Shown here piece after piece: positions 610-63,578 of a stretch of DNA of 64,000 nt (position 1 is the stretch's first letter; each line of letters starts with the position of its first letter). Made by a program: the position numbers and the translations under genes. The stretch covers positions 640,001-704,000 of the forward strand of contig CM000430.1 of the NCBI GenBank assembly GCA_000165345.1, read 5' to 3'. A model generated the notes under the pieces. That model searched no databases, had not been told where the DNA came from, and was given only the letters and a program-made list of their open reading frames with translations.

Positions 610-1571
610 AATCTACCAATAGTTTCCTCTTATTTTTTTTTTCAAATATTCATGCATGCATCTTTATGTACCGGCGCTCTGTTCCATACACTGCGCATGC
701 AACTATGCATCCACATGAATCTAAGTGTACAAAAAAAGAAAAAAACCAAAACAACAAAAAGAAAATATATACAAAAATATTGATAAATCAGAGCAAAACC
801 CGAAGTCTAAAATGAACTAAGCACACTGTTCATAAAAAAAACTTTCGTATTACATGGTGGAATTGAATCTTTGATTAGTGACACGCAAAGCAAAGATTTT
901 ACATTGGAAAAATTAACCAATAACACCGTTCCTGGATATAGCGTAAAATCTCCGTAGTCTTAGGAAAAATAACAAACTTCGACAATATTACGAAAAAAAA
1001 AGTATCTCATAATAAATGAATTATTGAATGCGGAAAAGTCTTGTTTTACATTGTTAACCCCATATTAAAGGTATAAACTTCGATATTAAAAAGTGTTGGT
1101 ATGACCGGCTAATATAAAAATTCTTCTTAAAGCTATTTCAAGCCAATGCCGTCCAATAATTCTGAGATTGCTAAACAAATAATGTTATCGTAATAAGGAA
1201 GATCGGAAATATTACTTCAATTAACGCCTAACTTTAGTGAACAAAAGACATCTCCATACGGATTCTATTCAAATGTGCAAATGCATAAACATTTATTCAA
1301 TTAATAAGCCATCAATATTAATTATTAAAGGTATTTATACTCGAAGAACCGAATGTCATTGACTTTCCATTAATTTACAAAAAGCTAAAGGAAAATGCGA
1401 CTAATAGTTCACATATAGTTGAATTGGGGGAAAAAATTAAAGCCATACATCATCTAATAACATCTGAATATTTTTTCAACTCAAAGATAATACTTTACAT
1501 CAATTATTGCTTGCACTTTATGGAATGTAAATATAATAATTTAGTCATGGTTTTACCACCAGCTAAGTAAT

Positions 1572-4500
1572 TTAAATCCTTGTTCTCCCAGAAAATACAC
1601 TAATGAGTACTTCTAATATTACTGAAGCCAAAATTGGATCTTCCTCAACAATTATGACCTTCAAACTAGAGCTAGTGTAATGTTTCACTTTATTGATCAA
1701 GGCTTTGATTGCTTGTAATATGTGTTGTTCTGCGCGGTGTCTAGAAACTTCATACATTTCTTTTAAGGAAAATATTTCTAATACAACTTGTTTTTCTGAA
1801 TTCGCCACAGCCTTAGAGATAACTTCTTCAAAAGCAGACGAAACAGATCTATTGTCAACATCAACCATGTACAATCTACTTAATGTTTTTGTTAATGGTA
1901 CTGTGTTGTCTCCATATTTTCTATTTGCAACTACGGTAACTCTACCTAGAAGCGATGGATATGAATGACCAATCAATGATAAAATGTTGTGAATTCCTGG
2001 ACTCAATGCGTCTATAGCTAGAACTTGACAGTTAACAAGGTCTGAAATATTTGCATTAGTTAAATAGAATCTCTTAGAAAGTTCAGTTAAAGAGGTACTG
2101 GCAAAAGTTGTTAACTGTTGAACCCAATAATTCATGCTATATAAGCCACTAACATCAGGCTTGGAATGTAGCCTAGTGAATTCGCGAAGTGCTGAATAAT
2201 GAGAGCTAGTAAATGTTGAACTAGAAGGAGCTGGTCTAGAGGCATCCTTGTTTCCGGTGAATTTTGGTAGTGGAGGTCTTGGAGGAGGTATTTTAGTAGG
2301 TCTAGGAGTGGTAGTAGTAGTAGTAGTTCTCATTATACGTCTACTAATTTCCTTCCTAACACTACTTAAGAGATTCTTTGATTTTCTTGGTGTCGTTGCT
2401 GGCGCTCTGAATTGTGGAATTATATTACCTCCAACGATTCCGCTTAAGCTCATCCAGTTTCGGTTGATAGATGTAAGGGTTGCACCAATCCCGCCTGAGC
2501 TTGCGTATTCAAGATAATAGGTTGCAAAGAGATCCAATGCAAGGAAGAAAACTTCAGAGTTTCTCTCGTAGAATGTGAGGTGGATGGAGTCTCTATGAGG
2601 GCTAGTGGAAAAGAATTCATCCATACTTTTAGCTGCTTGGAGGATGTACTCCTTATTTCTTGATTCACTTGTAATCATAGAAGTTGCAATTAATGGGGAG
2701 AGAATAGTAGTGCATCTATATTTTGCAGAGGCAAGTATTTTCTTGTAAAGAGCTTCTACAGCCTTGACCCTACTATTATAAATAAACTTTGTAGAATTAA
2801 GACAGTAGACTCTGGAAACATTGGTCATCCATGGTTCAATTGTGTAAGCATTTAAAGCTCTCACTCCCAACACCTTGATTTCAGAGCTACCAACTGAAGC
2901 GCATTCCTTTGCACTGATACCAAGCTTTACAGCGAGTTCAAGTTGAGCTTTTTCTGATACATCGACTACTAAGCATCCGCATCCAACAACACCTGGATTT
3001 GAGCTTGAAAGAATAAGAGAAAAGTGGTTTGAAGTTGTGGGTTGAGGAATTCTACCGTTGTACATTGATTGAATGAATTCAGAAACTGGTGTACCTGACA
3101 TACATTCTTCATCAGAGTCGAAATAGTATGTTGCTTGTGTACTTGGTCTAATTGAAGGTTGTTGAGATGCTACTGGTCTTAATGGCCCAATAGGTCGCTG
3201 TGGTACTGGTGGTGGAGGTCTTGATGGTCTTGGTGGTCTTGGTGGAGGTCTCATAGGTATTGTGGGTGGCATAGGAGTGGTTGTGTCTGTACCAAGTAAT
3301 TCTTCTGATGTTCTGACATTCATGAAGTATGGTTTTATTTGATCAACAAGAACTTCGAATTTTTCTCTTGTTTCTGTTAAAATAGTGATATGCATCTGCG
3401 AATTATAAAGCAAGAACTCATTTAACGCAGCAGCTAAACCCTCAACAGCGGCTGTAATAATTTGAATAGAGTATATATGACGAGAATCCCATAGACCAAA
3501 AGGTAAAACCAATAATTCACTCAAACGGTGCTTATCTGCAAATTCAAATATTTGCAAGTAGGCAGCTTTGATCAAATCCATCAAGGATTCATATGTACCT
3601 ACTTCATGAATGGCATTATAGAAGTCAAGGTACATTACCTTCTTTAAAGATGAGTACCAAATAGCAGGACTTTGGCGATAATTCGTTGATCTTACTGTAA
3701 CTCCTGATTCCTGAGTAACAGGACTATATGGAAGACCCATTTCTCTCATCAGTTCTTCAAACTTATAAGTCCCGCTTTCCATTATGAAAGCATCGCATGA
3801 GTGAATACCTATTGTAAAATCAGAGTATGCCAAAGAAATCTGAGTTGTTACGGAAGTATATTTATTAATGTATGGATCATTGGCTTCTGAAAGTAAAGTA
3901 AAGAAATTCTTCATTGTTGGGCAAGCAATACCATCGTATTGGTTGAAATCTGAAAGTAGCTGAGTTCTTGGCAAAGGAACCGGAGTTGGAGCTGGAATTG
4001 GAGTTGGGGCTGGAGTTGGGGCTGGAGTTGGGGCTGGAGTTGTACCAGACTGAATCGATTGATTATATGCTACTGGGTTTCTAGTAAATGCCTTTGAGAA
4101 CCCATGCAAGACTATATTGTAGGAATAGAAATCAGGTGCTGGAATAATAATATTGAATGGGCATTTCATATTATTGTTTCCAAAAGCTGTCATAACCCAA
4201 CTTCTCACTTGAAAAGCTGCATTATTAACTCTGGATTCAAAGTTAGTAGAGCCTGGTGTAATGATTGGTAATAGGATGTTTGAAACTTGATCTGCTGAAG
4301 CTCTATCCAAAATACTAGTGTATAACACAGACTCTGGGGCCGAGGATTGAACACAGTATATTGAACCCAATTTAGTACGACGACTTAAATTTGCATTTAA
4401 GTCAAATACAGCTGGGATATGGCTTGTTGTGGCAGGGCATGTAACTCTGGCAGAGTTTAGTAATGCAGTACTATCTGCACTCCTGGAGTCTACGACCAAA

Positions 4501-4694
4501 GCATCGCATGACGTGGAACTTAGAATTGATGGTGAATATGAATCAAGCAATACAACTGATACACACTTTGCTGAATTAAGAGAACCACCTCTATTCGCCA
4601 AGTAGATATCTAAAGCCGAGGTTGAGGCACAGTCAAAGGAGTACACAGCTGCAATTAGCTGAGATAACAGAGTAAAGAGTAATAAATAATTCAT
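1572..4694 (-). CDS. Large secreted protein (1040 aa) with an N-terminal signal peptide, Pro/Thr-rich linkers (PAPTPAPTPAPTP; PPPRPPRPSRPPPPVP; TTTTTTTPRP) and several Cys-containing globular segments.
   Basis: The start at 4694..4692 is ATG (checked). The N-terminus MNYLLLFTLLSQLIAAVYS is a typical signal peptide. The ORF is long and uninterrupted. A GC-motif promoter patch lies upstream at 4869-4881. Confidence 0.75.
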   Translation of the reverse strand: MNYLLLFTLLSQLIAAVYSFDCASTSALDIYLANRGGSLNSAKCVSVVLLDSYSPSILSSTSCDALVVDSRSADSTALLNSARVTCPATTSHIPAVFDLNANLSRRTKLGSIYCVQSSAPESVLYTSILDRASADQVSNILLPIITPGSTNFESRVNNAAFQVRSWVMTAFGNNNMKCPFNIIIPAPDFYSYNIVLHGFSKAFTRNPVAYNQSIQSGTTPAPTPAPTPAPTPIPAPTPVPLPRTQLLSDFNQYDGIACPTMKNFFTLLSEANDPYINKYTSVTTQISLAYSDFTIGIHSCDAFIMESGTYKFEELMREMGLPYSPVTQESGVTVRSTNYRQSPAIWYSSLKKVMYLDFYNAIHEVGTYESLMDLIKAAYLQIFEFADKHRLSELLVLPFGLWDSRHIYSIQIITAAVEGLAAALNEFLLYNSQMHITILTETREKFEVLVDQIKPYFMNVRTSEELLGTDTTTPMPPTIPMRPPPRPPRPSRPPPPVPQRPIGPLRPVASQQPSIRPSTQATYYFDSDEECMSGTPVSEFIQSMYNGRIPQPTTSNHFSLILSSSNPGVVGCGCLVVDVSEKAQLELAVKLGISAKECASVGSSEIKVLGVRALNAYTIEPWMTNVSRVYCLNSTKFIYNSRVKAVEALYKKILASAKYRCTTILSPLIATSMITSESRNKEYILQAAKSMDEFFSTSPHRDSIHLTFYERNSEVFFLALDLFATYYLEYASSGGIGATLTSINRNWMSLSGIVGGNIIPQFRAPATTPRKSKNLLSSVRKEISRRIMRTTTTTTTPRPTKIPPPRPPLPKFTGNKDASRPAPSSSTFTSSHYSALREFTRLHSKPDVSGLYSMNYWVQQLTTFASTSLTELSKRFYLTNANISDLVNCQVLAIDALSPGIHNILSLIGHSYPSLLGRVTVVANRKYGDNTVPLTKTLSRLYMVDVDNRSVSSAFEEVISKAVANSEKQVVLEIFSLKEMYEVSRHRAEQHILQAIKALINKVKHYTSSSLKVIIVEEDPILASVILEVLISVFSGRTRI

Positions 4695-5545: not shown

Positions 5546-7324
5546 ATGAGGCACAGAAAAGAATACAAAGCTAGAGAGCTAAATTCTTTTGAAAATGAGC
5601 ATAGAAGAGAAGATTTAAAAGCAAATATTGAAGAAAGTAGACCAAAAAGTAGCCTATTAAGAATTATTTTGGACTACATAGGTCTGCTATTGTACTATTT
5701 TATAAATATTGCCAAATTAATTTTTCATTACATACTTAATCCAAGATTAAATACATTAAAGGAATTATACCCTCATCATACAGCTGGAAAATATGAACCA
5801 AGAAGTAAATTTGGGTACCGGTTCTTTTTAGTTTGCAATAGAGTGCAAAATATTGGTTTTGGATTTGAATATAGAGGAGTATATTATTTTAGTAATGCAC
5901 ATTTTAATGCAAATACAGATAAATTAAAGATTGATGGGAAGGAAATTAGGCTATACCAGCAAGGATTTACGATGTTATGTTCAAAAAAAGAGCATAATAT
6001 GAAAAAGCCAAGAGATGACGAAGATTTATATTTGTTGAATCCCTATATGCCAACAATTAAAGGAAAGTGTATTTACAAGAATCCCTTCTTTTATTCATTT
6101 TTCCCAATTAATTCTATTTGTAGGGAGTTTACAGGACTACCTATAACTAATAGTAAGGGGGAGCTGGTATCAATATACGATAATTTTAGAAAAGTGAATA
6201 GCTTGGTTTATAATATAATTGGGGACGTTAACTTATGGAAAGAAGAGCAAAGTAATACATGTACTGATTATAAGGTTGAAAGTGTTCAAACAGACCGCAA
6301 GGATATACAAGTTTTTAGGGTAATTTCTAAATTTGAGGATGGATGTGATAATTTTGAAAATAATGAAATTGTTGGATACTTTTTCAAATATAACTCAATT
6401 AATTACATTTCTGGAGCATTTGTTGATGAATTTGGGAATCTGAGTTTGCCAATAGCACTGGAAGATATTAATGAAGCTGAAAATACTTTAAAATATTCAA
6501 ATTTATACAGGGATTTATGGGTTTCAGTACCAAATTCTATGCATAATTTAAGTTTGCCAGACCAAGATGAATATGCTTTTGTATTAAATATTACTAGGAA
6601 CAACCAGAAAGAGATTAAGGGTAGGATAAAAATAGATATTAATCAGCAATTTTGGGCAGAGTTTGTGGGAGTTCCAAATAGAGAATTTTTAGGACTACCA
6701 ATATTAAATAGAAATGACCAATTAATAGGAGTATATAGTGATTTTAACATAGAAAATAGTTTTGGAAGACTCAAATATTCAGTTTATCTTGGAGGGATAA
6801 ATACATTTAAGAATTTTTTTTTAAGAATAAGTTTGAGAAATCAAAATACCATACAAACTCTTGAAACTGATTTTGATATGGAAATCCTTGAGCAAGTTGT
6901 TTCTCTTTGTTCTATGGGTACTGAAGATAATGATAAATCCTGCAATAAACTTGTAAATAGGGTTCTTTTTGGTGTTGGAAGTGAAGATATTTCTCAACAA
7001 ACTTATGAAAATCTTGAATTAATATTAAAAAAAAGATATCAAGATTCATCTTTGTACCCTGATAGCATTATTTCTGTTTCTAATAACCCAAATATTAGAT
7101 ACACTCAAGTACAAGATAAGAAGTTCATTATAGCAAATACTAACTGGATAGGGTATTCTTACCTTAATAGTGGCAACTTATTCCCATTTAATTCTTCTAA
7201 AAGTCTCCTAATCATATTATCTAACACTTCTACCGTATTAACTGAAGAGCTTCTTGAGAGTTATTATAAAAAAACTCATAAAACCAAACGTGGATTTTAT
7301 CTCAAGTTTATTTCAAATAAATAA
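5546..7324 (+). CDS. Hypothetical type II membrane protein (592 aa). It has a single N-terminal transmembrane anchor and a large Asn-rich ecto/lumenal domain with many N-x-S/T sites.
   Basis: ATG at 5546 verified. There is a hydrophobic segment LLRIILDYIGLLLYYFINIAKLIF after a basic N-terminus. I recognise no conserved enzymatic motif. Confidence 0.65.
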   Translation: MRHRKEYKARELNSFENEHRREDLKANIEESRPKSSLLRIILDYIGLLLYYFINIAKLIFHYILNPRLNTLKELYPHHTAGKYEPRSKFGYRFFLVCNRVQNIGFGFEYRGVYYFSNAHFNANTDKLKIDGKEIRLYQQGFTMLCSKKEHNMKKPRDDEDLYLLNPYMPTIKGKCIYKNPFFYSFFPINSICREFTGLPITNSKGELVSIYDNFRKVNSLVYNIIGDVNLWKEEQSNTCTDYKVESVQTDRKDIQVFRVISKFEDGCDNFENNEIVGYFFKYNSINYISGAFVDEFGNLSLPIALEDINEAENTLKYSNLYRDLWVSVPNSMHNLSLPDQDEYAFVLNITRNNQKEIKGRIKIDINQQFWAEFVGVPNREFLGLPILNRNDQLIGVYSDFNIENSFGRLKYSVYLGGINTFKNFFLRISLRNQNTIQTLETDFDMEILEQVVSLCSMGTEDNDKSCNKLVNRVLFGVGSEDISQQTYENLELILKKRYQDSSLYPDSIISVSNNPNIRYTQVQDKKFIIANTNWIGYSYLNSGNLFPFNSSKSLLIILSNTSTVLTEELLESYYKKTHKTKRGFYLKFISNK

Positions 7325-7673
7325 TTTTTTTTTGCTTAATTATATGCAGCCATCCATATTCATTGTGAATGCATGCATGCAATTTTTTCCTATGATTACG
7401 TGTATTGCATGCATTTTCTTTCTTGATTAAAAAAAAAATTCAAAAAAATGATCTATAAGTTGGATTTATTAATAAAAAGGTAATCTCTCTAATAATAATA
7501 TAATTTATTACTAAATAATGATTATTAAAATTTGTTGTTTATTATATAATTCAAATCTAATATTAAGATTTAAATGAATAATAAATCTTGATATTTGACA
7601 ATATTCTTTTCATTTTCTCTTTAATGTATTTGAAAATAGTAAAGTTGTAAAATTATAAAATAACTAGAATAAA

Positions 7674-8933
7674 TTATGCATTAGTATATAATATCATCAT
7701 ATTTAGGAAGATGATTAATAAGCTTTGTAAAATATGATAATTTGAGAATATTGGTAAAGAATTACTTTTTCTAAAATGTTTCTTGTAAAATCTTCTAAGT
7801 CCATGTTTAAGATCAAATGGTCCTCTATCAATAATTTCATAATCAATAATATCCAATCCATTTTCATTTTTGCATTCTTCTGGATTTAATAAACATTTAC
7901 AATCATTCGAATTAGGATTATATGTACAATGACAGCCAGGATTGAATGGATTAATATAACATCCACACAATTTTGAATATGGATTTAAATTACATGGGCA
8001 TCCAATACTATAAGGACTTGTTGAGCATCTTGGTATTATTGGAAGAGTAATATCATTAGTACAAGAAATAATAGTTTTACATTCATTAGTCATAGGATAT
8101 GTAATATTATATTGATTATTTTGTATATGATTATATATTGATTGATCATTATAACAGAAGCAATCAATTCCCATTGGATTAGTATAACATTTATATTCAT
8201 TATTATGTATACAATAAATTGGATTATTAATACACATGAATTTTATATTATTAGTAGTTTTTAAACTTGCTTGACAGAATGGATTATGTTCATTATTAAT
8301 GTTATCAATATTTCTTTTCCATAGAATAATTTTACCATATTTATTATTAAATTCATTTTCTATTAATGTAATTCTTTCAATATCATTATAAGTTGGATAA
8401 TCAATTAATATATTTTTGATTATTGATAAATCAAATATTATACCTTTTAATTTACCATTTGGTAAATTACATTTTTCATATCCACTAAATAATTTATTTG
8501 AATTTTCTGCATATATCTCATCAATTACAATATCTTGTATATGTATTCCTAATATATTGGAAATATGTTCTTTTAATGCCATTGTAATTTGTTTATAGTT
8601 ATCTTTTCTTTCTTCACAAAATGAAGATTCTAATAATGCTAATGTAATTGTTTGAATATGATTATGCTTTCCAATATCACTATCAGTATTTTCTTCTTTT
8701 TCCCGTCCTTTAGTAGTTGGTAATTTTGTATTATTATTGTTAATAGGAATTGAAGTGGAAGTTTTAGAAGTGAAGGATTTTCTAGTAGAGGTGGTGGTAG
8801 TAGAAGTTGTTGTTGTTGTTATAAGAATGGGTAATTTGAGTAATAATTTATCTTCTTTACTTGCAAAAAGTTGAGAATCATTACCATTACTCATTCCATC
8901 AAATTCTATATCATTATTTGGTATAGAGTTCAT
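7674..8933 (-). CDS. Thr-rich mucin-like protein with a C-terminal cysteine-repeat domain (5 x C-x-C-x2-N-P/D units). It may be the 3' part of a larger mucin gene that includes the upstream poly-Thr tract.
   Basis: ATG at 8933..8931 verified. No signal peptide follows this Met. There is a TTTTTSTTTTST tract. The repeats are CFCYNDQ, CPCNLNP, CGCYINP, CHCTYNP and CKCLLNP. A Thr-coding frame from the repeat region ends with TAA at 8982..8980, one frame off from this ORF. Confidence 0.6.
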   Translation of the reverse strand: MNSIPNNDIEFDGMSNGNDSQLFASKEDKLLLKLPILITTTTTSTTTTSTRKSFTSKTSTSIPINNNNTKLPTTKGREKEENTDSDIGKHNHIQTITLALLESSFCEERKDNYKQITMALKEHISNILGIHIQDIVIDEIYAENSNKLFSGYEKCNLPNGKLKGIIFDLSIIKNILIDYPTYNDIERITLIENEFNNKYGKIILWKRNIDNINNEHNPFCQASLKTTNNIKFMCINNPIYCIHNNEYKCYTNPMGIDCFCYNDQSIYNHIQNNQYNITYPMTNECKTIISCTNDITLPIIPRCSTSPYSIGCPCNLNPYSKLCGCYINPFNPGCHCTYNPNSNDCKCLLNPEECKNENGLDIIDYEIIDRGPFDLKHGLRRFYKKHFRKSNSLPIFSNYHILQSLLIIFLNMMILYTNA

Positions 8934-8939
8934 TTTGAG

Positions 8940-9700
<761 letters not shown>

Positions 9701-9709
9701 AGTTTGGTT

Positions 9710-12043
<2,334 letters not shown>

Positions 12044-14712: not shown

Positions 14713-14725
14713 ATATTATTTTCTA

Positions 14726-24815: not shown

Positions 24816-25061
24816 ATATTGAATAATACAACCAGAATAATAAGTTGTACCTCAATTCGTTAAAGTTGTATATTTCCCCAAGAACTTATCGTTTATATAG
24901 AGTCTTATATAAGAGATCAACTAGGCTTTTAGTAAGGCTAAAGTTTTTGAAAATCTTATAAATTAACTTTAGATAATTTGAGGAAGAAAGGGTTCAAGTA
25001 CTTATTATCGTCTATACTAAATTCTAGTTACTTTTAATGTCTTAAGCTTAGGAATTATAAG

Positions 25062-27608: not shown

Positions 27609-28742
27609 ATGGTTCACGAATATATTGGAAGCAAAATTACAATAATTTCTCGTAATGATAAAAGATATGAAGGTGTCTTGCACTCTATAGATGTTGACAA
27701 GTCCACTATCACTTTAAAAGATGTTAGATACTTTGAGAATGGTCCAAATGGTGCTCCTGGGCCTGCATCATCAACCGTTTTTGAGATGATTGTTTTTAGA
27801 GGAAGTGACATTACAGATCTTGCAGTTTGTCAGCCGGCAGCGGCAACAAACAATAATGGACTTCCAAATGATCCTGCGATATTATCAGTTAATGGAGGAT
27901 CAGGGACTACTTCAGCTCAGAGCCAAGGTCAGAGTCATGTCGCTGATACTAGCAGTGTTAATCAGCAAAAACCACTTGAAACTAGTTCAAGTAACTCTAG
28001 ACGTTCCCCTAAAATGAGCTATAGCAATGCTGTATCCGGAGGAAAACCCTCAGGCACTAATCAAGGGAGCTCATCAATCTCGAACGGACGCAAAGATCAT
28101 TCCAGGAATAGACAAAGAGGTGGTGGATATTCAGGAAAATCTTATAAAGGTAGCGGAGGAAGCTCTCATTATAACAATGGTGGAGGTAGTCAAAGGTCTT
28201 TCATTGTTGGAGAACTAAAGCCTAGAATTAATCAGGCTCTCAAAGCAGAACTTGATACTGAATTTGATTTTTCCGAACAAAATAAGAAATTCGAGAAAAC
28301 GCTCAATGAAGGACTTGCTTCTGCTCAAACGGAACAGGGAGTTAAATTAGAAGGTACCATTTCAGATACCGGTAACAAATCTGGAGCTATGAATACAGGT
28401 CTAGGTATTAGTGGAAATTCTAATGCAAGTAATGATACTACTGATGATGACCCATCCAAAAAACTAACGGTTGGAGGATACAACAAAGTTTCTGGATTCT
28501 TTGATAGCATTTCCTGTGAAACTTTAGATCCTGAGCGCTCAAAAAAACCTCAAGGTTCATCTGATCCCCAAGCTAAAGCCCTCAGAGAAAAACAAAAACA
28601 AATAGACAAGGAAACCTTTGGAACGTCAGCTGTAAAACCTCGTACTGGGTCCTATAACAGAGGTTCTCATCATAGAAGAGGTGGAGGAAGTCATAGAGGT
28701 GGATATCATGGAAATAACAGATTCAATAAAAGAGAGGCATAA
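27609..28742 (+). CDS. SCD6: LSm14 / Scd6 / RAP55-family mRNP protein (377 aa).
   Basis: ATG verified. The N-terminal LSm domain YIGSKITIISRNDKRYEGVLHSIDVDKSTITLKDVRYF...VFRGSDITDLAV is present. There is an FDF motif (ELDTEFDFSEQNKKFEK), an FFD box (SGFFDSIS) and a C-terminal RGG-like tail. Confidence 0.85.
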   Translation: MVHEYIGSKITIISRNDKRYEGVLHSIDVDKSTITLKDVRYFENGPNGAPGPASSTVFEMIVFRGSDITDLAVCQPAAATNNNGLPNDPAILSVNGGSGTTSAQSQGQSHVADTSSVNQQKPLETSSSNSRRSPKMSYSNAVSGGKPSGTNQGSSSISNGRKDHSRNRQRGGGYSGKSYKGSGGSSHYNNGGGSQRSFIVGELKPRINQALKAELDTEFDFSEQNKKFEKTLNEGLASAQTEQGVKLEGTISDTGNKSGAMNTGLGISGNSNASNDTTDDDPSKKLTVGGYNKVSGFFDSISCETLDPERSKKPQGSSDPQAKALREKQKQIDKETFGTSAVKPRTGSYNRGSHHRRGGGSHRGGYHGNNRFNKREA

Positions 28743-29752
28743 TTTTTTTTATTCGGCCCACCAAAACTTAACCGCAGTGAATGCATGCACGTAATTCTCA
28801 TTATGTCATTTTGTATGTTACGTGGCAGGCGGGAACATATATTTATTAAATATTTTTTACTTTAAGTAGATATTGGGGGAATTAATTTGAAGTATTTGGG
28901 AGCCTTTTTATTGCTAAAGGTTCACTAATGTTTATTTTTCCTTTTTCTTTGTTGATTATGATTCACTAGATCACATCTAATCCTTCTATCTCCTTTTTTA
29001 CTCTTGTTTTTCTATTTTAATATTATCATATTCCACCTTTTTTCCCTCGCCCTCCCCAGTTGCATCTCTCTTGCCTTGGTAAATCCTAAAGGGTCTGACA
29101 CCATCGGGAAGATGGAAATATACTCCTTTGTCATGCATTCAAATTAAGATCCACTCCCTCCCCCATCACTACACACTTTTTTACTATGTAAAGTTTAATT
29201 TTTTAGGGCTTTAGTAATCAAATTAAATATTTTTTTAAATTTACGCCCAAAAGGCGGGAACATGCAGGATATTAAATTAGTTTGTTACTTATTTAAATTA
29301 TATTAATAATAAATACGTGTAAGGTACCGGTAATAATATATATAAATCGTATTAATATTGTGGTTAAATTTCAAATATTAGAGAAATAAGTACGAAGCTT
29401 TGCAAAAATTGGTAAAACCTCCCTATATAAATATATTTATATATTGAGGGGAGTTTCAGAATTAAATAAAGAGGAAAAAGGTGATAATAAGGAAGACTAT
29501 TTCGGAGATTAATCTCCATTGGGTAAAGTGAACGGAATTAAAAGGTAATAGTTAAATTCTGCGCTTCATCACTTAAAGAATCTAATTTGGAATAGGAATA
29601 ATAAATTCCTATAAGGTTCAAGCAAAGAATAAATAAACAGGAAAAGTGGTATCATAATTATTAAGAATCTTAAATACTAAATTGTGAGGAGTGGTTTTGA
29701 CACAGTTTTCAGAGTAGATAATTACTGTCTTTAAATTCATGGCAAATCAAAG

Positions 29753-34367: not shown

Positions 34368-37285
<2,918 letters not shown>

Positions 37286-38134
37286 CAAAATTTGTCTCAA
37301 CCAATTTATCAAAAGAAGTATTCTTCTATATTATTTTGATTCTTAGCAATAGTAATGATAAAATATTCATTTAAATTATTACTTCACTTAAATTAATTTC
37401 ATTAATTACATATTTTTTTAATTAACATCACATTTTTTTATTTCACTAATTGTTTTAATATTTTTATAGTAAAAAAGCAAAAAAAAAACTTTCTCAATTA
37501 CTTGCGTTAATGCTCCTTCCACATAAAATAAATATATTTATACACGTAATTTGCATGTAATTATTTAATACCGGTATCATTATGTAAACTCTTTCCACAT
37601 TGAAAAAAATGTTGACATATACATGCGTGCATGCAAATTTGCAATATATTTAGATAATATATTTCTTACTAAATCCTTTATTAGTTTTATTAAAACAATA
37701 AATAGAGAAAAGTATAAATTATTGTTATTATTACTATTATTATTATTATAAACACAAATTTTGGTTAATTATAAAAGGATAATATCAACAATAAGTAAGG
37801 ATAACAAATAAAGAGCTTAAAGTATAAATTGGAAACTAGTATTTGTGTTTTTTTTTAGAGTAAAGCAAACTGTGTGATTCAATATGAATAATAATTTCTG
37901 AATGCAAATAAATATCTTGGAAATTATCAAATTAAATTAATATTTAGTGGCGCTATGGGGAAAATATTTCTAATCTGGATATTATGTTAATATTACTACA
38001 TGAAATCAAAATAAGCTACTGAATTCAAGATAAATAATATTAAATAATTACCAATTATTTAAGTGCTTTTTTATAAAAACTTTTAAATAATTTTGTTAAG
38101 TTAATAATTGATATATTAATTATAAAATAAAAAT

Positions 38135-39841
38135 ATGGAGCAAGTTCAAGTAACGCCTTATCTTGACCAGAAGCCAGGAACAAGTGGTCTAAGAAAGAAA
38201 ACCCGTGTATTTATGGAAGGAACTTACTTGGCTAACTTTATTGAATCATACTTCCAATCATTCCCACCTGAAAATTTTGAAGGTGCAACACTTTTGGTAG
38301 CTGGCGATGGTAGATTCTTTCTACCAGAAGCAATACAAATTATTTCCGAAATTGCTGCAGCACATAAAGTTAAAAGGATTTGGACTGGTGTTAATGGCTT
38401 ATGTTCAACACCAGCAGGGAGTGCTATCATAAGAGAAAGAGAAGGCGGTATTGCAGTCGGTGGAATCTTATTAACAGCTTCACACAACCCAGGTGGTATT
38501 GATGAGGACTTTGGAGTTAAATTTAACGGAAAGAATGGTGGCCCAGCTCAAGATTCGGTTACCAATACAATTTTTGAAATTACAAAAAAATTAACATCAT
38601 ATAAGAAGATTTCACTTCCTAAAATTGATTTAAGTAAAATTGGCGTGCAGGAATTAATACCCAATCAATTTACCGTCGAAGTAATAGATACATCTGAAGA
38701 TTGGCTAAAATTAATGAAAAAGATATTTGATTTCCAAAAGATTCAAAATCTACTTAATAGAAAAGATTTTAAAATGGCTTTTGATTCTATGCATGGTGTG
38801 GCTGGACCATATGCAAGAAAACTCTTTGTTGACGAATTTGGATTGCCAGAAAGTTCATTGTTACATTTGGAATCAAAGCCAGATTTTGGAGGGCTTCATC
38901 CTGATCCAAATCTTACTTATGCAAAAGACTTAGTTGAATTAATGAAAGTTAAATCTCCAGAAAAAGTTGATAAAAGCACGCCAGATTTTGGTGCTGCTGG
39001 AGATGGTGACTGTGATAGAAATATGATTTTGGGTAAAGGATTCTTTGTTACCCCTTCAGATTCTGTTGCAATTATTGCATCATATGCGAAAGAAGCAATC
39101 CCATACTTCTCAAAAGGATTGGCTGGTGTCTCAAGATCTATGCCTACTAGTACTTCGCTCAATAATGTAGCAGAAAAGCTCGGAATCCCATGCTATGAGG
39201 TACCAACAGGATGGAAATACTTTGGTAATTTAATGGATGCAAAAATGATTGACATATGTGGTGAAGAATCTTTTGGAACAGGAAGTGACCATATTCGTGA
39301 AAAGGATGGATTATGGGCAGTGTTGGCTTGGTTATCGATTCTAGCCCACAAGAATCCAGACCCAACAAAGCCATTGGTATCTGTTGAGGATATCACTAGG
39401 GAATTCTGGAAAACATATGGAAGAAACTACTACACTAGATTCGATTACGAATCAATTGAAACAGAAAAAGCTGATCAATTCTTTAAACATTTAAATTCTT
39501 TAATGGAAGATCATCAGAAATTAAGAGAAATCATTAAACCATATGGTATTGATATCAAATTAACTGATAACTTTACATATAATGATCCAGTAGATAAATC
39601 TGTCGCAAAAAATCAGGGTTTAAGATTTATCTTTCAGGATAACTCCAGAGTTGTTTTCCGCCTATCAGGTACAGGTTCAGTAGGAGCAACAATTCGAATT
39701 TACATTGAAAAGACTGTGAGTGATCAAACAAAAGTTAATAGCACATCAAACGAAATCCTTGGCGATTTGATTGAGATAGTTGAGAAAAAGATTAAATTAA
39801 AAGAATCGACAGGAAGAGATAGGCCAACTGTTATAACTTAA
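38135..39841 (+). CDS. PGM: Phosphoglucomutase (alpha-D-phosphohexomutase family), copy 1, cytosolic type (568 aa).
   Basis: ATG verified. It carries the active-site Ser loop TASHNPGG, the Mg loop GDGDCDRNMILG, and the sugar- and phosphate-binding motifs (GEESFG, RLSGTGS). Confidence 0.95.
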   Translation: MEQVQVTPYLDQKPGTSGLRKKTRVFMEGTYLANFIESYFQSFPPENFEGATLLVAGDGRFFLPEAIQIISEIAAAHKVKRIWTGVNGLCSTPAGSAIIREREGGIAVGGILLTASHNPGGIDEDFGVKFNGKNGGPAQDSVTNTIFEITKKLTSYKKISLPKIDLSKIGVQELIPNQFTVEVIDTSEDWLKLMKKIFDFQKIQNLLNRKDFKMAFDSMHGVAGPYARKLFVDEFGLPESSLLHLESKPDFGGLHPDPNLTYAKDLVELMKVKSPEKVDKSTPDFGAAGDGDCDRNMILGKGFFVTPSDSVAIIASYAKEAIPYFSKGLAGVSRSMPTSTSLNNVAEKLGIPCYEVPTGWKYFGNLMDAKMIDICGEESFGTGSDHIREKDGLWAVLAWLSILAHKNPDPTKPLVSVEDITREFWKTYGRNYYTRFDYESIETEKADQFFKHLNSLMEDHQKLREIIKPYGIDIKLTDNFTYNDPVDKSVAKNQGLRFIFQDNSRVVFRLSGTGSVGATIRIYIEKTVSDQTKVNSTSNEILGDLIEIVEKKIKLKESTGRDRPTVIT

Positions 39842-40051: not shown

Positions 40052-42064
40052 ATGATGAAAATTTTGAACATACTCTTTTCATTAGTTCTTGTAAGTCAGT
40101 ATGTCAATGCAAACGAAAGTGTGGGGAATTTGAGATATTTGCAGAAAATAAATCTGATCGAACCTACCGATGGTCAAGCAAAGGTAGTTACCTCCCAGGA
40201 TGTTCAAATTAATCAGGGAAGGGCCCTAATTAAGAAGAAAGTGTCCGTAGTAACAAGAAATGTCATTGAAACCGAAACAACTGAGACTTATTATTATTCA
40301 GATAAAGGTCTAGATGCTTGGAGTCCTAATGAAAATGATAATCTATTAGATATGTTAGTTCAAGAAGTTCAAATATCTCCTTATCTTGATCAAAAGCCAG
40401 GAACAAGTGGTCTAAGAAAGAAAACCCGTGTATTTATGGAAGGAACTTACTTGGCTAACTTTATTGAATCATACTTCCAATCATTCCCACCTGAAAATTT
40501 TGAAGGTGCAACACTTTTGGTAGCTGGCGATGGTAGATTCTTTCTACCAGAAGCAATACAAATTATTTCCGAAATTGCTGCAGCACATAAAGTTAAAAGG
40601 ATTTGGACTGGTGTTAACGGTTTATGTTCAACACCAGCAGGGAGTGCTATCATAAGAGAAAGAGAAGGCGGTATTGCAGTCGGTGGAATCTTATTAACAG
40701 CTTCACACAACCCAGGTGGTATTGATGAGGACTTTGGAGTTAAATTTAACGAAAAGAATGGAGGCCCAGCTCAAGATTCGGTCACCAACGCAATTTTTGA
40801 AATTACAAAAAAATTAACATCATATAAGAAGATTTCACTTCCCAAAATTGATTTAAGTAAAATTGGCGTACAGGAATTAATACCCAATCAATTTACCGTC
40901 GAAGTAATAGATACATCTGAAGATTGGCTAAAATTAATGAAAAAGATATTTGATTTCCAAAAGATTCAAAATCTACTTAATAGAAAAGATTTTAAAATGG
41001 TCTTTGATTCTATGCATGGTGTGGCTGGACCATATGCAAGAAAACTCTTTATTGACGAATTTGGATTGCCAGAAAGTTCATTGTTACATTTGGAATCAAA
41101 GCCAGATTTTGGAGGGCTTCATCCTGATCCAAATCTTACTTATGCAAAAGACTTAGTTGAATTAATGAAAGTTAAATCGCCAGAAAAAGTTGATAAAAAC
41201 ACACCAGATTTTGGTGCTGCTGGAGATGGTGACTGTGATAGAAATATGATTTTGGGTAAAGGATTCTTTGTTACCCCTTCAGATTCTGTTGCAATTATTG
41301 CATCATATGCAAAAGAAGCAATCCCATACTTCTCAAAAGGATTGGCTGGTGTCTCAAGATCTATGCCTACTAGTACGTCGCTCAATAATGTAGCAGAAAA
41401 GCTCGGAATCCCATGCTACGAGGTACCAACAGGATGGAAATACTTTGGTAATTTAATGGATGCAAAAATGATTGACATATGTGGTGAAGAATCTTTTGGA
41501 ACAGGAAGTGACCATATTCGTGAAAAGGACGGATTATGGGCAGTGTTGGCTTGGTTATCGATTCTAGCCTACAAGAATCCAGACCCAACAAAATCATTAG
41601 TATCTGTTGAGGATATCACTAGGGAATTCTGGAAAACATATGGAAGAAACTACTACACTAGATTCGATTACGAATCAGTCGAAACAGAAAAAGCTGATCA
41701 ATTCTTTAAACATTTAAATTCTTTAATGGAAGATTCTCAGAAATTAAGAAACTCTCTCCGTTCAAGTGGGTTGAAGGTGAAATTTATGGATAACTTTACA
41801 TATAATGATCCAGTAGATGGTTCAGTTACAAAAAATCAGGGTGTTAGGATTATATTTACGGACGGTTCAAGAATTATTTTTAGAATTTCTGGAACAGGAT
41901 CAGTGGGAGCAACTATTAGGGTATATATGGAGAAGACTGTTAAAAACCCTCAGGAATTTGAAAAAACAACCCAACAAGCTCTAAATCACTTAATTGAGAT
42001 AGTTGAGAAAAAGATCAAATTAAAAGAGATTACTGGTAGAAGCAAGCCTACAGTAATTACTTAA
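40052..42064 (+). CDS. Phosphoglucomutase / parafusin-like paralogue, copy 2, with an N-terminal signal peptide plus a roughly 100-aa extension (670 aa).
   Basis: The N-terminus MMKILNILFSLVLVSQYVNA|NES is a strong signal peptide. The core from about 40352 is near-identical to copy 1 for about 1.37 kb and then diverges in the C-terminal roughly 110 aa. Confidence 0.9.
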   Translation: MMKILNILFSLVLVSQYVNANESVGNLRYLQKINLIEPTDGQAKVVTSQDVQINQGRALIKKKVSVVTRNVIETETTETYYYSDKGLDAWSPNENDNLLDMLVQEVQISPYLDQKPGTSGLRKKTRVFMEGTYLANFIESYFQSFPPENFEGATLLVAGDGRFFLPEAIQIISEIAAAHKVKRIWTGVNGLCSTPAGSAIIREREGGIAVGGILLTASHNPGGIDEDFGVKFNEKNGGPAQDSVTNAIFEITKKLTSYKKISLPKIDLSKIGVQELIPNQFTVEVIDTSEDWLKLMKKIFDFQKIQNLLNRKDFKMVFDSMHGVAGPYARKLFIDEFGLPESSLLHLESKPDFGGLHPDPNLTYAKDLVELMKVKSPEKVDKNTPDFGAAGDGDCDRNMILGKGFFVTPSDSVAIIASYAKEAIPYFSKGLAGVSRSMPTSTSLNNVAEKLGIPCYEVPTGWKYFGNLMDAKMIDICGEESFGTGSDHIREKDGLWAVLAWLSILAYKNPDPTKSLVSVEDITREFWKTYGRNYYTRFDYESVETEKADQFFKHLNSLMEDSQKLRNSLRSSGLKVKFMDNFTYNDPVDGSVTKNQGVRIIFTDGSRIIFRISGTGSVGATIRVYMEKTVKNPQEFEKTTQQALNHLIEIVEKKIKLKEITGRSKPTVIT

Positions 42065-42918
42065 ATCTTTTTCTGTATTAAAAAATAAATAATTTCATTA
42101 TTTTATAATTTTTCTTGGTGCAATTTGGAATTTAAATCAACGAATCTATGTATGGAGCCCTCATTTTTTTCTTCGTTTTGTTTTTATAGATATTTTTATT
42201 TGAGTTCAGTTCATTTTTTCAATATTTTCACTAATTTTTTCTCATTGTAATGGATTATTTAAATTTAATAAAAACTGGAATTATATCACTACATCATTTG
42301 TGGATTAATTAAGTTTTTATCCTTTCAAGTTTAGAAAGTTTGTAAAGTTTTATTATTTTTAGTTAGTCTTAAATCATTATGTGATAATTTATTCTGAATG
42401 ATGCATAATTTAATAAGATAAAATAGAATGTAATGTAATTTTGTCACATAAACCGTATTTAGGTCGTTTTGTATTACTTTATCATTAAGTTTCTATGCCT
42501 TTATTTTATCTCTTACTAAATTATCTATTTCCTTTTTTTTTTATAATGGATGCTCAAGTACATGCAACTAATTGCATGCTTTTGGCGCCAGAATGACATT
42601 TTTTCTCCTTTATTTAGCTTCAATATTTTTGTAAACTAGAAAAGGCGAACTAAAAGAAATAACTTACACACACATACAAAGTGCTTTCTTATTTTTATAG
42701 AAAAAAAAAGGAATATTAGAAATAAGCTTTTTTTTATTGTATTATTGTTTAATATGGGCTCTACAAGGAAATATTTTCTAAAAAAACATGGTTTTATTCT
42801 ATACCAAAATAAAATAATTGCTTTACTAATTGCGCAAAAATAAAATAAGTTTAATTAATCATTTCTTTGGTTTGTTAATTAATAATTTCTAACCATTATT
42901 CAAATATATTAATTATGT

Positions 42919-42984: not shown

Positions 42985-43558
42985 CTGAGACAATTTTTAT
43001 GAAAATATTAAAGTACCGATATAGAGGTTAATTATATAACTGGTAAGATTTTTCTTTTTTTTTTTAATTTAAAAGAATTAGAAAATGTATAAATAAAAAC
43101 CGGGTAAATACAAGAAACATTATTTAAAGTAAATAATACAGCCAAGTATATTATTAAGGGGAAAAGACATAAAGTTAATGTACTTTTATTAAATAAGAAA
43201 ATAATAGTCAAAACCCCGGGATATAATTGTGGAAAAAAAAAACTGAATATAAAAAAATACCAAGGAGGAATAAGCGAAGTAATTGACAAGAAATCATCAT
43301 ATTTGATATAAATCAAGTTGTTTAGATTTTTTTCAATAATACAGTTTAGTATCCACGCATATATATATATATATATAAATATATATAAATATATATGTAC
43401 ATACATTTATGCCAATAGAGAGCCTTACATAGTTATTAAAGAAAATTTTAATTTAACTATACAAATAGAATATTGTTTAAGTTACAAGAACAATATCTAA
43501 TATATAAGAAATTTCATGTAACTATACAAATTAATTTGGGGATTTCTATGAGAAAAAA

Positions 43559-45259: not shown

Positions 45260-46301
45260 TTAATGGTTCTCTAAGCTTAATTCTTGCTACTTTAACCCAT
45301 AGATAATTCTATCATAAAGAAGAAAAGAATCCAACTTGAAAATACTCTCTTAATCTAATAACAATCTTCTTCTTATATTGAAAAAAAAGAGAAGATGTAA
45401 TTTATTAACAGGATCTCCGAGACGTGGAATCATTAAAATACCCATTATTCATCCCCTTGTCTCCAATTTGGACATATATATGAGCTTCTGACTAATTTTA
45501 TCATTATTATATTATGATGGTTACTATACTACTAACATACTAGAGCAAATTCCAGATAACAAAAGTGGAAATGATCCTATTTCCTTTTTTTTCTGTTGAT
45601 TGTGGTAACTAATTAATAAAGGAGCAAGTATTTAGTTCATTTGATGATGTAATATGAGAGTTAGTAGTGTATTTATTCACTACATTGTTGTGCTACATCA
45701 TTTTTATCCATACTGAAAAGGAATTAAAGAATGTGGAGAGGAACTAAAGCGAGAAGAGAGAGAAAAACTTGATAGAAATGGAGAATAATAGTAATAAATA
45801 GATTTAGAGGTCGTTATACATAATTGTCGTCGACAACTTACTTTTAAATTCTGCCGAGAATATTCATTATTTAGTCCATTTTAATTATTAACTTTAAAGA
45901 CAATTTTTTTAATGTATTGTTTATATTAATATTGTATTTGAAAGATTAAAAAAAAGTTACTCTCCAAAATGCATGTTTGAGCGCCAATTTTTTTTCTTCT
46001 TAATCAATTTCCTACTCTGCTTATCTTTCAAATCGATAATAATTTATAAAAACTGACTATACTGGGAAATTGGTTGTAGATACATAATTCTGGAAAAGAA
46101 ATACAATTATTGCCGATCATTTAAAAGAAAGTAAACAGTTATATTTGAATAAAAAAATCTAAAATAAAACCTAATAAAGCATTGTCAGTTCTGAAACGCT
46201 TACCGGTATGACAAATATTTGCATGCAAAATTGAAGGATACCCGCCCAAACATTTTATGCACGCCCACTAGTTGTATAATATAGGGATGGGTATGTTTTT
46301 G

Positions 46302-46317
46302 TTGGCGCGCGCGCCAA
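46302..46317. other. Perfect 16-nt GC palindrome TTGGCGCGCGCGCCAA in a convergent (3'-3') intergenic region, next to CCCGCCCAAAC and TTGCATGCAAAA.
   Basis: Read directly from the sequence. The surrounding DNA is strongly AT-rich. Confidence 0.5.
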
Positions 46318-46448
46318 TAGCTGCCACCTGTTAATTAAGATGTCTGAAGAGTGGAATGACTGGAGTAAAGTGATCAATTGGAATATAGTGCATAACTGAC
46401 TTGTTATTTCTCTCATTTTTCCTTTCCATCTTTTTCTTTCTCTATCTT

Positions 46449-63129: not shown

Positions 63130-63578
63130 TTGTTTAAATTTCTATCATAGCCAACATTCCACTTTTTACTTTATAATATTTACAATTACAATTTGAAAAG
63201 TTTCACAAAAAGAAAAGATGTAGCTAAAAATTAAGCAAGGCCAGGTTAGAAAAGGATGTAATGTATTTGGAGCAATATTAATAATTACTTATTATTTAAA
63301 GTTATAGTCTTTTTTTTATTTACTAGAATATGATATATAAATAAATAAGCGAGGAAAAACCAAGCTGTTAAAATTAGCTTTAGGTGAAATACTCATTTTA
63401 TTTGTTTTTCTTCTAATAAGGTACACTTTATTGTCGTCAAAAAATTAACATGGAAAGTTAAGCCCAAATAACCGGAGAATGTTTGCGCCAAAAAATGCAT
63501 GCAAGTGCATGCATGCAAAATTGAAATGTGGGAATCAAATTAAAATAATTTCTTTTCCTATATAAAAGCAATAGAAAT

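Follow-up and report, generated by a model that had tools for sequence, protein, structure and literature searches.

AP2_1 and E2F-type motifs in convergent intergenic spacers of Cryptosporidium parvum: probable promoters of antisense and other non-coding transcripts

This analysis concerns GCATGC-containing motifs, in part accompanied by GC-rich E2F-like words, in a 64,000-nt stretch of Cryptosporidium parvum (the window, meaning this whole stretch). Some of these motifs lie in convergent (3′-3′) spacers, i.e. between the 3′ ends of two genes that face each other. They are probably dedicated promoters of antisense or other non-coding transcripts. At one of these spacers (610-1571, spacer 1), a published antisense long non-coding RNA (lncRNA), Cp_lnc_93, starts shortly downstream of the motifs. 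lncRNA promoters that carry AP2_1 and E2F motifs at gene 3′ ends are a known kind of element, and the instance flagged here is itself published (Li et al. 2021; PMC7840661), motifs included, since Cp_lnc_93 and its tabulated motifs are this locus.

Spacer 1 separates G1 (CPATCC_0027690; + strand; 3′ end at 1-609, stop codon ending at 609) from G2 (CPATCC_0027680; − strand; 1572-4694), which converges on it. Both genes are supported by open reading frames (ORFs) and called genes, and G1 also by Pfam, its orthologues being assigned to the acyltransferase-3 family; G2 encodes 1040 aa and has no Pfam domain. The spacer carries one AP2_1 site, CATGCATGCAT (651-661), with the palindromic core TGCATGCA at 653-660, and a second one, GCGCATGCAAC (693-703), followed by a degenerate copy, TGCATCCACAT (706-716), the last two forming a block at 693-716. 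Motif coordinates are given without strand. The motif pair lies 44-95 bp after the stop codon of G1. Two 18-mers, one from the spacer and one from the 3′ end of G2, matched the lncRNA FASTA file of PMC7840661 (DataSheet_1.fasta) and led to Cp_lnc_93 (alias CPATCC_0027683; 2094 nt), whose published sequence is 100% identical to and collinear with 733-2826 of the window (+ strand). The transcript starts at 733 in an A-rich tract, 124 bp after the stop codon of G1 and 29-82 bp downstream of the two GCATGC sites. It covers the remaining spacer (733-1571, ~840 bp) and is then antisense to the 3′ part of G2 over 1572-2826 (1255 nt). Table S3 of PMC7840661 gives three motif-2 hits upstream of Cp_lnc_93, at -79 (AGATGCATGCA), -38 (AGTTGCATGCG) and -26 (ATGTGGATGCA). 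These hits map to 653-663, 694-704 and 706-716 of the window and are the motifs that the first-pass annotation of this DNA had pointed out. Site 1 has two features of the antisense lncRNA promoters of Li et al.: a non-coding transcript found by stranded RNA sequencing starts within 100 bp downstream, and this transcript overlaps the 3′ part of the opposite gene.

Cp_lnc_93 is stage-regulated. In Table S5 of PMC7840661, its sense gene is CPATCC_0027680 and its expression goes up from the asexual to the sexual stage; the variance-stabilising transformation (VST) value is 6.2 at 24 h and 8.0 at 48 h. G1 is its 'upstream_gene' in the supplement of that paper. Its expression correlates at r=-0.27 with that of the sense gene and at r=0.29 with that of G1, which lies upstream and shares its strand. 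The stage regulation and the weak correlation with G1 argue against simple read-through. In addition, read-through candidates were removed by a filter in PMC7840661, which Cp_lnc_93 passed; the authors acknowledge the limitation that short-read assembly sets here. Since Cp_lnc_93 crosses it, spacer 1 is not empty DNA: this long spacer is the 5′ body of a non-coding transcription unit. An unannotated antisense or non-coding RNA unit had been suggested at 610-1571. An antisense lncRNA does start shortly after the motif site, but it is not unannotated, having been published in 2021. The best-conserved block of the spacer, above the motif region, is 760-834, in the 5′ part of Cp_lnc_93 (identity of 88-100% in C. 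meleagridis, 56-88% in chipmunk genotype I and 56-84% in C. ubiquitum).

Going by sequence match, TGCATGCA is the AP2_1 (ApiAP2) element BGCATGCAH, and GCGCCAAAAA, CCCGCCC and TTGGCGCGCGCGCCAA are E2F/DP1-type sites. The copies in the convergent spacers fit the AP2_1 consensus BGCATGCAH / [T/C]GCATGC[A/G]. Protein-binding microarrays showed in-vitro binding of AP2_1, as double-stranded DNA, to the ApiAP2 domains of cgd2_3490 (the Plasmodium AP2-Sp/PF14_0633 orthologue, with a late expression peak) and cgd1_3520 and to further TGCAT-binding domains. Its over-representation in Cryptosporidium non-coding DNA has long been noted, and its confinement to such DNA was first reported for C. parvum chromosome 6; it is over-represented upstream of co-expressed gene clusters and often paired with E2F-like or G-box motifs. 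The motif studied here is identical in sequence, confined to non-coding DNA and often paired with E2F-like words; it differs in location, AP2_1 having been described upstream of protein-coding genes, whereas one cluster in three is found here at a place where no protein-coding gene begins. The E2F/DP1 sites described for Cryptosporidium are [A/T][C/G]GCGC[G/C][A/T] and TTTGGCGGGAA; E2F is the dominant motif upstream of lncRNAs (PMC7840661) and in sporozoite peaks of the assay for transposase-accessible chromatin with sequencing (ATAC-seq). The three E2F-type words of sites 3 and 4 (see below) match these descriptions, whereas sites 1 and 2 are devoid of such a word: E2F/DP1 cores ([C/G]GCGC[G/C] or GGCGGG(AA)) were matched at 45981, 46241, 46301-46316 and 63485, and no E2F-like word was found in spacers 1 and 2.

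The gene map used here comprises 26 genes deduced from long ORFs. It is consistent with the called genes of NCBI C. parvum assemblies, with orthologous loci and with the CPATCC gene numbers that PMC7840661 attaches to four lncRNAs. The protein encoded at 5546-7321 is unchanged on ~992 kb chromosomes of three NCBI assemblies, including CP044421.1 of GCA_015245375.1, named C. parvum IOWA-ATCC by Baptista et al.; homologues bear the names of Cryptosporidium species. The G+C content of the window is ~30%. The map includes 6 convergent, 5 divergent and 14 tandem spacers. The motif-bearing convergent spacers are spacer 1 (610-1571), spacer 2 (7325-7673), spacer 3 (45260-46448) and spacer 4 (63130-63578); those without the motif are 14713-14725 and 24816-25061. 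The first-pass count of four motif-bearing convergent spacers out of six was thus confirmed on a gene map checked against assemblies, and all the motifs that it had quoted are present within 1-2 bases of the positions given. Besides the pair of spacer 1, these are GCATGCATGCAA (7371-7382) and TTGCATGCAT (7405-7414) in spacer 2, TTGCATGCAAAA (46219-46230) and CCCGCCC (46241-46247) in spacer 3, and GCGCCAAAAA (63485-63494) and ATGCATGCAAGTGCATGCATGCAAAA (63495-63520) in spacer 4. Flanks of ~14 kb were also inspected; they contain one extra convergent spacer, of 168 bp, from which the motif is absent. The motif is also absent from a non-orthologous convergent spacer checked in three other species. 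The motif-bearing convergent spacers measure 349-1189 bp, each of them longer than those without motif (13 and 246 bp, and the 168 bp just outside the window). The statement that they are long for this genome holds for two of them (962 and 1189 bp), compared with the published mean intergenic distance of 504 bp (PMC7840661), but not for the other two.

The motif is far more frequent than expected. TGCATGCA occurs 19 times in the window, compared with 0.69 expected from dinucleotide-preserving shuffles (shuffle maximum 4), and 8 times in the 3.2 kb of convergent spacers, compared with 0.02 expected. All 22 GCATGC cores fall within intergenic DNA (19.8 kb); the genic DNA, 44 kb in total, has none. 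Exact copies of TGCATGCA in convergent spacers are found at 653, 7370, 7374, 7406, 46220, 63496, 63506 and 63510, to which CGCATGCA at 694 is added. By spacer class, the GCATGC core is present in 4 of 6 convergent, 1 of 5 divergent and 7 of 14 tandem spacers. Convergent spacers harbour 4 of 13 GCATGC clusters and account for 16% of the intergenic length, a difference that is not significant (binomial P=0.15). The motif is therefore not depleted, rather than enriched, in the convergent spacers of the window; clearly, there is no depletion of the kind expected if it served annotated genes only. GCATGC is paired with an E2F-like word within ~40 bp at 9 of 14 clusters in the window. Paired clusters are found in tandem spacers (15990, 21041, 28783, 31807, 32082 and 42574) as well as in convergent ones (45970, 46221 and 63485). 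This composite AP2+E2F layout is shared by tandem spacers, so that the modules of convergent spacers do not differ in kind from the rest. The hypothesis of a dispersed repeat was rejected, the motif contexts being alike only in the short motifs. Another word, TACCGG(T/C), is found beside several GCATGC clusters (669, 37569, 46201, 54846 and 63471). It is conserved in the alignments of spacers 1 and 3 (AATACCGGTATAC in chipmunk genotype I, C. ubiquitum and C. canis) and is similar to 'motif 4' (CCTATACCGGCTGTC) of Li et al. (PMC7840661).

The comparison with orthologous loci covered five species: C. meleagridis, chipmunk genotype I, C. ubiquitum, C. canis and C. felis. These loci retain both the synteny and the unusual length of the spacers (816-1018 bp for spacer 1 and 891-1366 bp for spacer 3). 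The identity of spacer 1 to that of C. parvum is 63% in chipmunk genotype I, 49% in C. ubiquitum and 34% in C. canis. TGCATGCA is found 39-111 bp after the stop codon of G1 in four of the five species: C. meleagridis, which retains the 651-661 site, and chipmunk genotype I, C. ubiquitum and C. canis, in which the distance is 99-111 bp. In C. meleagridis and chipmunk genotype I, conservation extends to the block CGCATGCAACTATGCATCCACATGA (693-716 region). In spacer 2, ATGCATGCAA is aligned 14-84 bp after the stop codon of G3 in the same four species, with a mean column identity of 44% around it. C. ubiquitum has no intergenic GCATGC in 21.7 kb other than the two copies of spacers 1 and 2 (P=0.0025); the equivalent P is 0.007 in chipmunk genotype I and 0.013 in C. 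canis. Retention at the orthologous position in four of five species suggests that the sites of spacers 1 and 2 are under purifying selection. In spacer 4, chipmunk genotype I has TGCATGCA 71 bp and GGCGCC 91 bp from the stop codon of G26, and C. ubiquitum has only TTGGCGCCAA, 40 bp from this stop, so that TGCATGCA is retained in one of two species. In spacer 3, the E2F palindrome block GGCGCGCGCGCC is found 123-155 bp from the stop codon of G20 in all four species compared (including chipmunk genotype I, C. ubiquitum and C. canis). A second E2F cluster, ~300 bp further in, is also retained (400-470 bp from the stop codon of G20 in C. ubiquitum and C. canis). The spacer 3 orthologue of C. canis harbours TGCATGCATGCATGCATGCG and CGCGCC 22-48 bp after the stop codon of the G19 orthologue, at the end opposite to that of the C. 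parvum copy.

For sites 2, 3 and 4, conservation and a common architecture lead to the prediction that they too are dedicated non-coding or antisense promoters. Site 2 (7370-7414) consists of the AP2_1 cluster TGCATGCATGCA (7370-7381) and of TTGCATGCAT, 46-82 bp after the stop codon of G3; it is the predicted driver of a + strand transcript antisense to G4 (7674-8933). Its AT-skew profile shows a switch from T-rich to A-rich after the motif, as at site 1, which may point to a + strand start near 7425; the profiles of spacers 3 and 4 are uninformative on transcript direction. Spacer 3, of 1189 bp, contains a first module made of ATGCATG and the E2F-like GCGCCAA (45969-45987) and, at site 3 (46219-46316), a composite that unites TTGCATGCAAAA, CCCGCCC and TTGGCGCGCGCGCCAA, an E2F palindrome at 46301-46316; its distance from the stop codon of G20 (46449) is 133-229 bp. 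Site 4 (63481-63520) is a composite of the E2F-like GCGCCAAAAA and of ATGCATGCAAGTGCATGCATGCAAAA, which contains three TGCATGCA; it is located 63-95 bp from the stop codon of G26 (63579; − strand), a gene of 1007 aa.

In the proposed mechanism, an ApiAP2 protein recognising TGCAT(GCA) (cgd2_3490, cgd1_3520 or others) and/or E2F/DP1 would bind the module. Transcription would start independently in an A-rich tract some tens of bp from it, and the RNA polymerase II transcript would cross the spacer before entering the convergent gene in antisense orientation. The modules would thus be ordinary Cryptosporidium promoter modules driving RNA polymerase II transcripts that do not encode proteins. At site 1, the lncRNA is induced at 48 h, when sexual stages appear; at sites 2-4, both the existence and the direction of the transcripts are predictions. 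Because a 3′-3′ spacer holds no mRNA promoter, the motifs cannot be a by-product of a bidirectional mRNA promoter. This sets them apart from most of the published antisense RNAs. PMC7840661 reports 396 C. parvum lncRNAs, including 363 antisense ones that are concentrated over the 3′ ends of sense genes, with E2F/DP1 and ApiAP2_1 as the top two motifs within 100 bp upstream of lncRNAs. Of these 363, 309 have an upstream mRNA in head-to-head orientation and were read there as products of bidirectional promoters. Site 1 is the very locus of one member of this set and its tabulated ApiAP2_1 hits are the flagged motifs; by contrast with the head-to-head members, the sites described here lie in spacers without mRNA promoter, and sites 2-4 are uncatalogued. 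In Plasmodium falciparum, natural antisense transcripts initiating at gene 3′ ends are described (Siegel et al. 2014; Broadbent et al. 2015, as cited in PMC7840661). According to what is cited there, promiscuous initiation in nucleosome-depleted regions was proposed, whereas specific, conserved transcription-factor sites precede the start in the present case.

Three further lncRNAs of PMC7840661 map to the − strand of the window: Cp_lnc_118 (27859-29215), antisense to the LSM14 gene G13; Cp_lnc_119 (from 32314 downwards; enriched at 48 h), antisense to the DnaJ/thioredoxin gene G14; and Cp_lnc_120 (from ~37435 downwards), antisense to the TPR gene G16. A copy of TGCATGCA at 37628 is located ~190 bp upstream of the start of Cp_lnc_120. 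No match in the lncRNA FASTA file was obtained on either strand with probes taken from spacers 2-4 and from the 3′ ends of the neighbouring genes. This file is ordered by coordinates and has no entry between Cp_lnc_93 and Cp_lnc_118, nor between Cp_lnc_120 and Cp_lnc_121 (outside the window). The list of long intergenic non-coding RNAs of the same paper has no alias in the gene range of the window. The later CpBGF T2T annotation (GCA_035232765.1; CryptoDB) includes 766 lncRNAs and Iso-Seq UTRs; G3 corresponds to cmbei_2003120 and, under legacy-compatible naming, would bear a number near cgd2_3120.

Several observations weigh against dedicated non-coding promoters. No transcript of sites 2-4 is present in the 2021 lncRNA catalogue (PMC7840661). 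Cp_lnc_93 is a short-read assembly on the same strand as G1, so that its 5′ end is not a mapped cap site and read-through is formally possible. Some GCATGC copies, such as the TGCATGCA at 28782 (in Cp_lnc_118), are located within a published lncRNA and not upstream of its start. GCATGC was not found in spacers 1 and 2 of C. felis, and the GCATGC copy of spacer 3 is not conserved outside C. parvum among the species compared; the latter spacer looks like a case of site turnover within a maintained regulatory region. Lastly, E2F was found in the ATAC-seq open chromatin of sporozoites, but AP2 motifs were not, which indicates that AP2_1 elements are not active promoters in that stage. This lack fits a stage-restricted use, since Cp_lnc_93 rises at 48 h and the expression of cgd2_3490 peaks late.

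Other functions of the motifs were considered. No support was found for a role in termination or 3′ processing, nor for one in chromatin or replication, both of which had been put forward in the first-pass annotation; the co-occurrence of E2F sites and the mapped transcript start argue against the need for either. A related explanation, which appears unlikely, is that bound ApiAP2 or E2F proteins act as roadblocks or insulators at gene 3′ ends and halt or separate converging polymerases, any antisense RNA being a side effect. It would account for the position of the clusters: 5 of 13 follow a stop codon within 100 bp, compared with 12% of intergenic bases (P ~0.015), this stop-proximal position is conserved across species, and in the window the 300 bp preceding annotated ATGs are free of clusters (P ~0.003), the distance to the next ATG being 316-980 bp. 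However, the sample is small, and the avoidance of starts is not absolute, since in the flanks one cluster precedes an ATG by 172 bp and another by 317 bp. Moreover, three convergent spacers (13, 168 and 246 bp) do without the motif. Its role as a promoter element is documented, and at site 1 it is directly followed by the start of a stage-regulated transcript; no report of roadblock termination in Apicomplexa was found in the literature examined. A combination of both functions, in which AP2_1/E2F modules would preferentially be located directly behind stop codons and serve, in this very compact genome, as dual-purpose 3′-end elements providing a factor-bound boundary that terminates or separates converging transcription and launching a stage-specific antisense RNA across the adjacent gene, has an equally low probability. 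If it were true, analyses of 'upstream motifs' that assign intergenic motifs to the next ATG would have mis-assigned many of them.

Three other explanations are less likely. The motifs could be distal regulatory elements of nearby coding genes or marks of small unannotated coding genes, which seems quite unlikely. The motifs of tandem spacers are 316-980 bp from the next ATG, so that acting far from start codons seems to be usual, and the over-representation of AP2_1 upstream of co-expressed gene clusters would also be in keeping with a coding target. But the nearest promoter, as seen from a 3′-3′ spacer, lies beyond a whole gene (1.7-3.1 kb), the spacers have no ORF of more than 65 aa, no gene is called there in the orthologous annotations of seven assemblies/species, and it is a non-coding transcript that starts at the motif of site 1. 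It is very unlikely that UGCAUGCA acts at the RNA level, as an element of the 3′ untranslated region (UTR) of adjacent mRNAs involved in their stability, localisation or cleavage. At 5 clusters, the motif is 40-95 nt after a stop codon and would be within 3′ UTRs if these exceed ~100 nt, and the palindrome reads alike in either transcript. Against this, ApiAP2 domains bind the motif as double-stranded DNA, an E2F-type DNA site accompanies it at most clusters (9 of the 14, within ~40 bp), it also occurs in a divergent spacer (12410), where there is no 3′ UTR, and the motif of site 1 is preceded by a T-run that may be that of a cleavage region. Chance, already disfavoured, is the least probable explanation and an extremely unlikely one: the motif would be a frequent intergenic word that happens to fall in convergent spacers, and Cp_lnc_93 would result from read-through of G1. 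The lack of over-representation for spacer length (P=0.15) and the nature of Cp_lnc_93, a short-read assembly on the strand of G1, are compatible with it, but not the excess of TGCATGCA in convergent spacers (8 vs 0.02 expected), its positional retention in species whose spacers are otherwise randomised, or the weak correlation of Cp_lnc_93 with G1 (r=0.29) and its passing of the read-through filter.

A scan of the whole 64 kb against Rfam gave no match at the gathering score, no tRNA was found in the whole window, and the longest small ORF listed in the convergent spacers encodes 65 aa, none being conserved. These results give no indication of a structured non-coding RNA, a tRNA or a small protein gene in these spacers. 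Some other features of the window are worth recording. The region 8934-9709, between G4 and G5 (9710-12043), has a strong GC skew and varies in length among C. parvum assemblies, and the window sequence diverges from two of them past ~8982; this 'tandem spacer' is probably a coding repeat, since two assemblies annotate G4 and G5 as a single gene (1519-1624 aa). Tandem duplicate phosphoglucomutase genes (38135-39841 and 40052-42064), 210 bp apart, are merged in the annotation of one assembly; TGCATGCA is found 507 bp upstream of the first copy, and the earliest association made for AP2_1 was with glycolysis-related genes. A (TA)n microsatellite of ~15 units (37251-37280) directly follows the stop codon of G16. 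The 1.5 kb spacer between G18 and G19 contains GCATGC and TTGGCGCC at 42574-42589 and an ORF of 124 aa (43032-43406, − strand) that is uncalled in every assembly and orthologous locus examined.

For Cryptosporidium, a 'promoter motif in the wrong place' is best taken as one that drives a non-coding transcript. Antisense RNAs exist for about 10% of C. parvum genes. The location of the motifs in 3′-3′ spacers and their conservation amid randomised spacers argue that at least some of these RNAs are driven by dedicated promoters under selection, as opposed to bidirectional noise. What is added to the published catalogue is modest: the argument for dedicated promoters, and three sites without catalogued transcript that constitute testable predictions.

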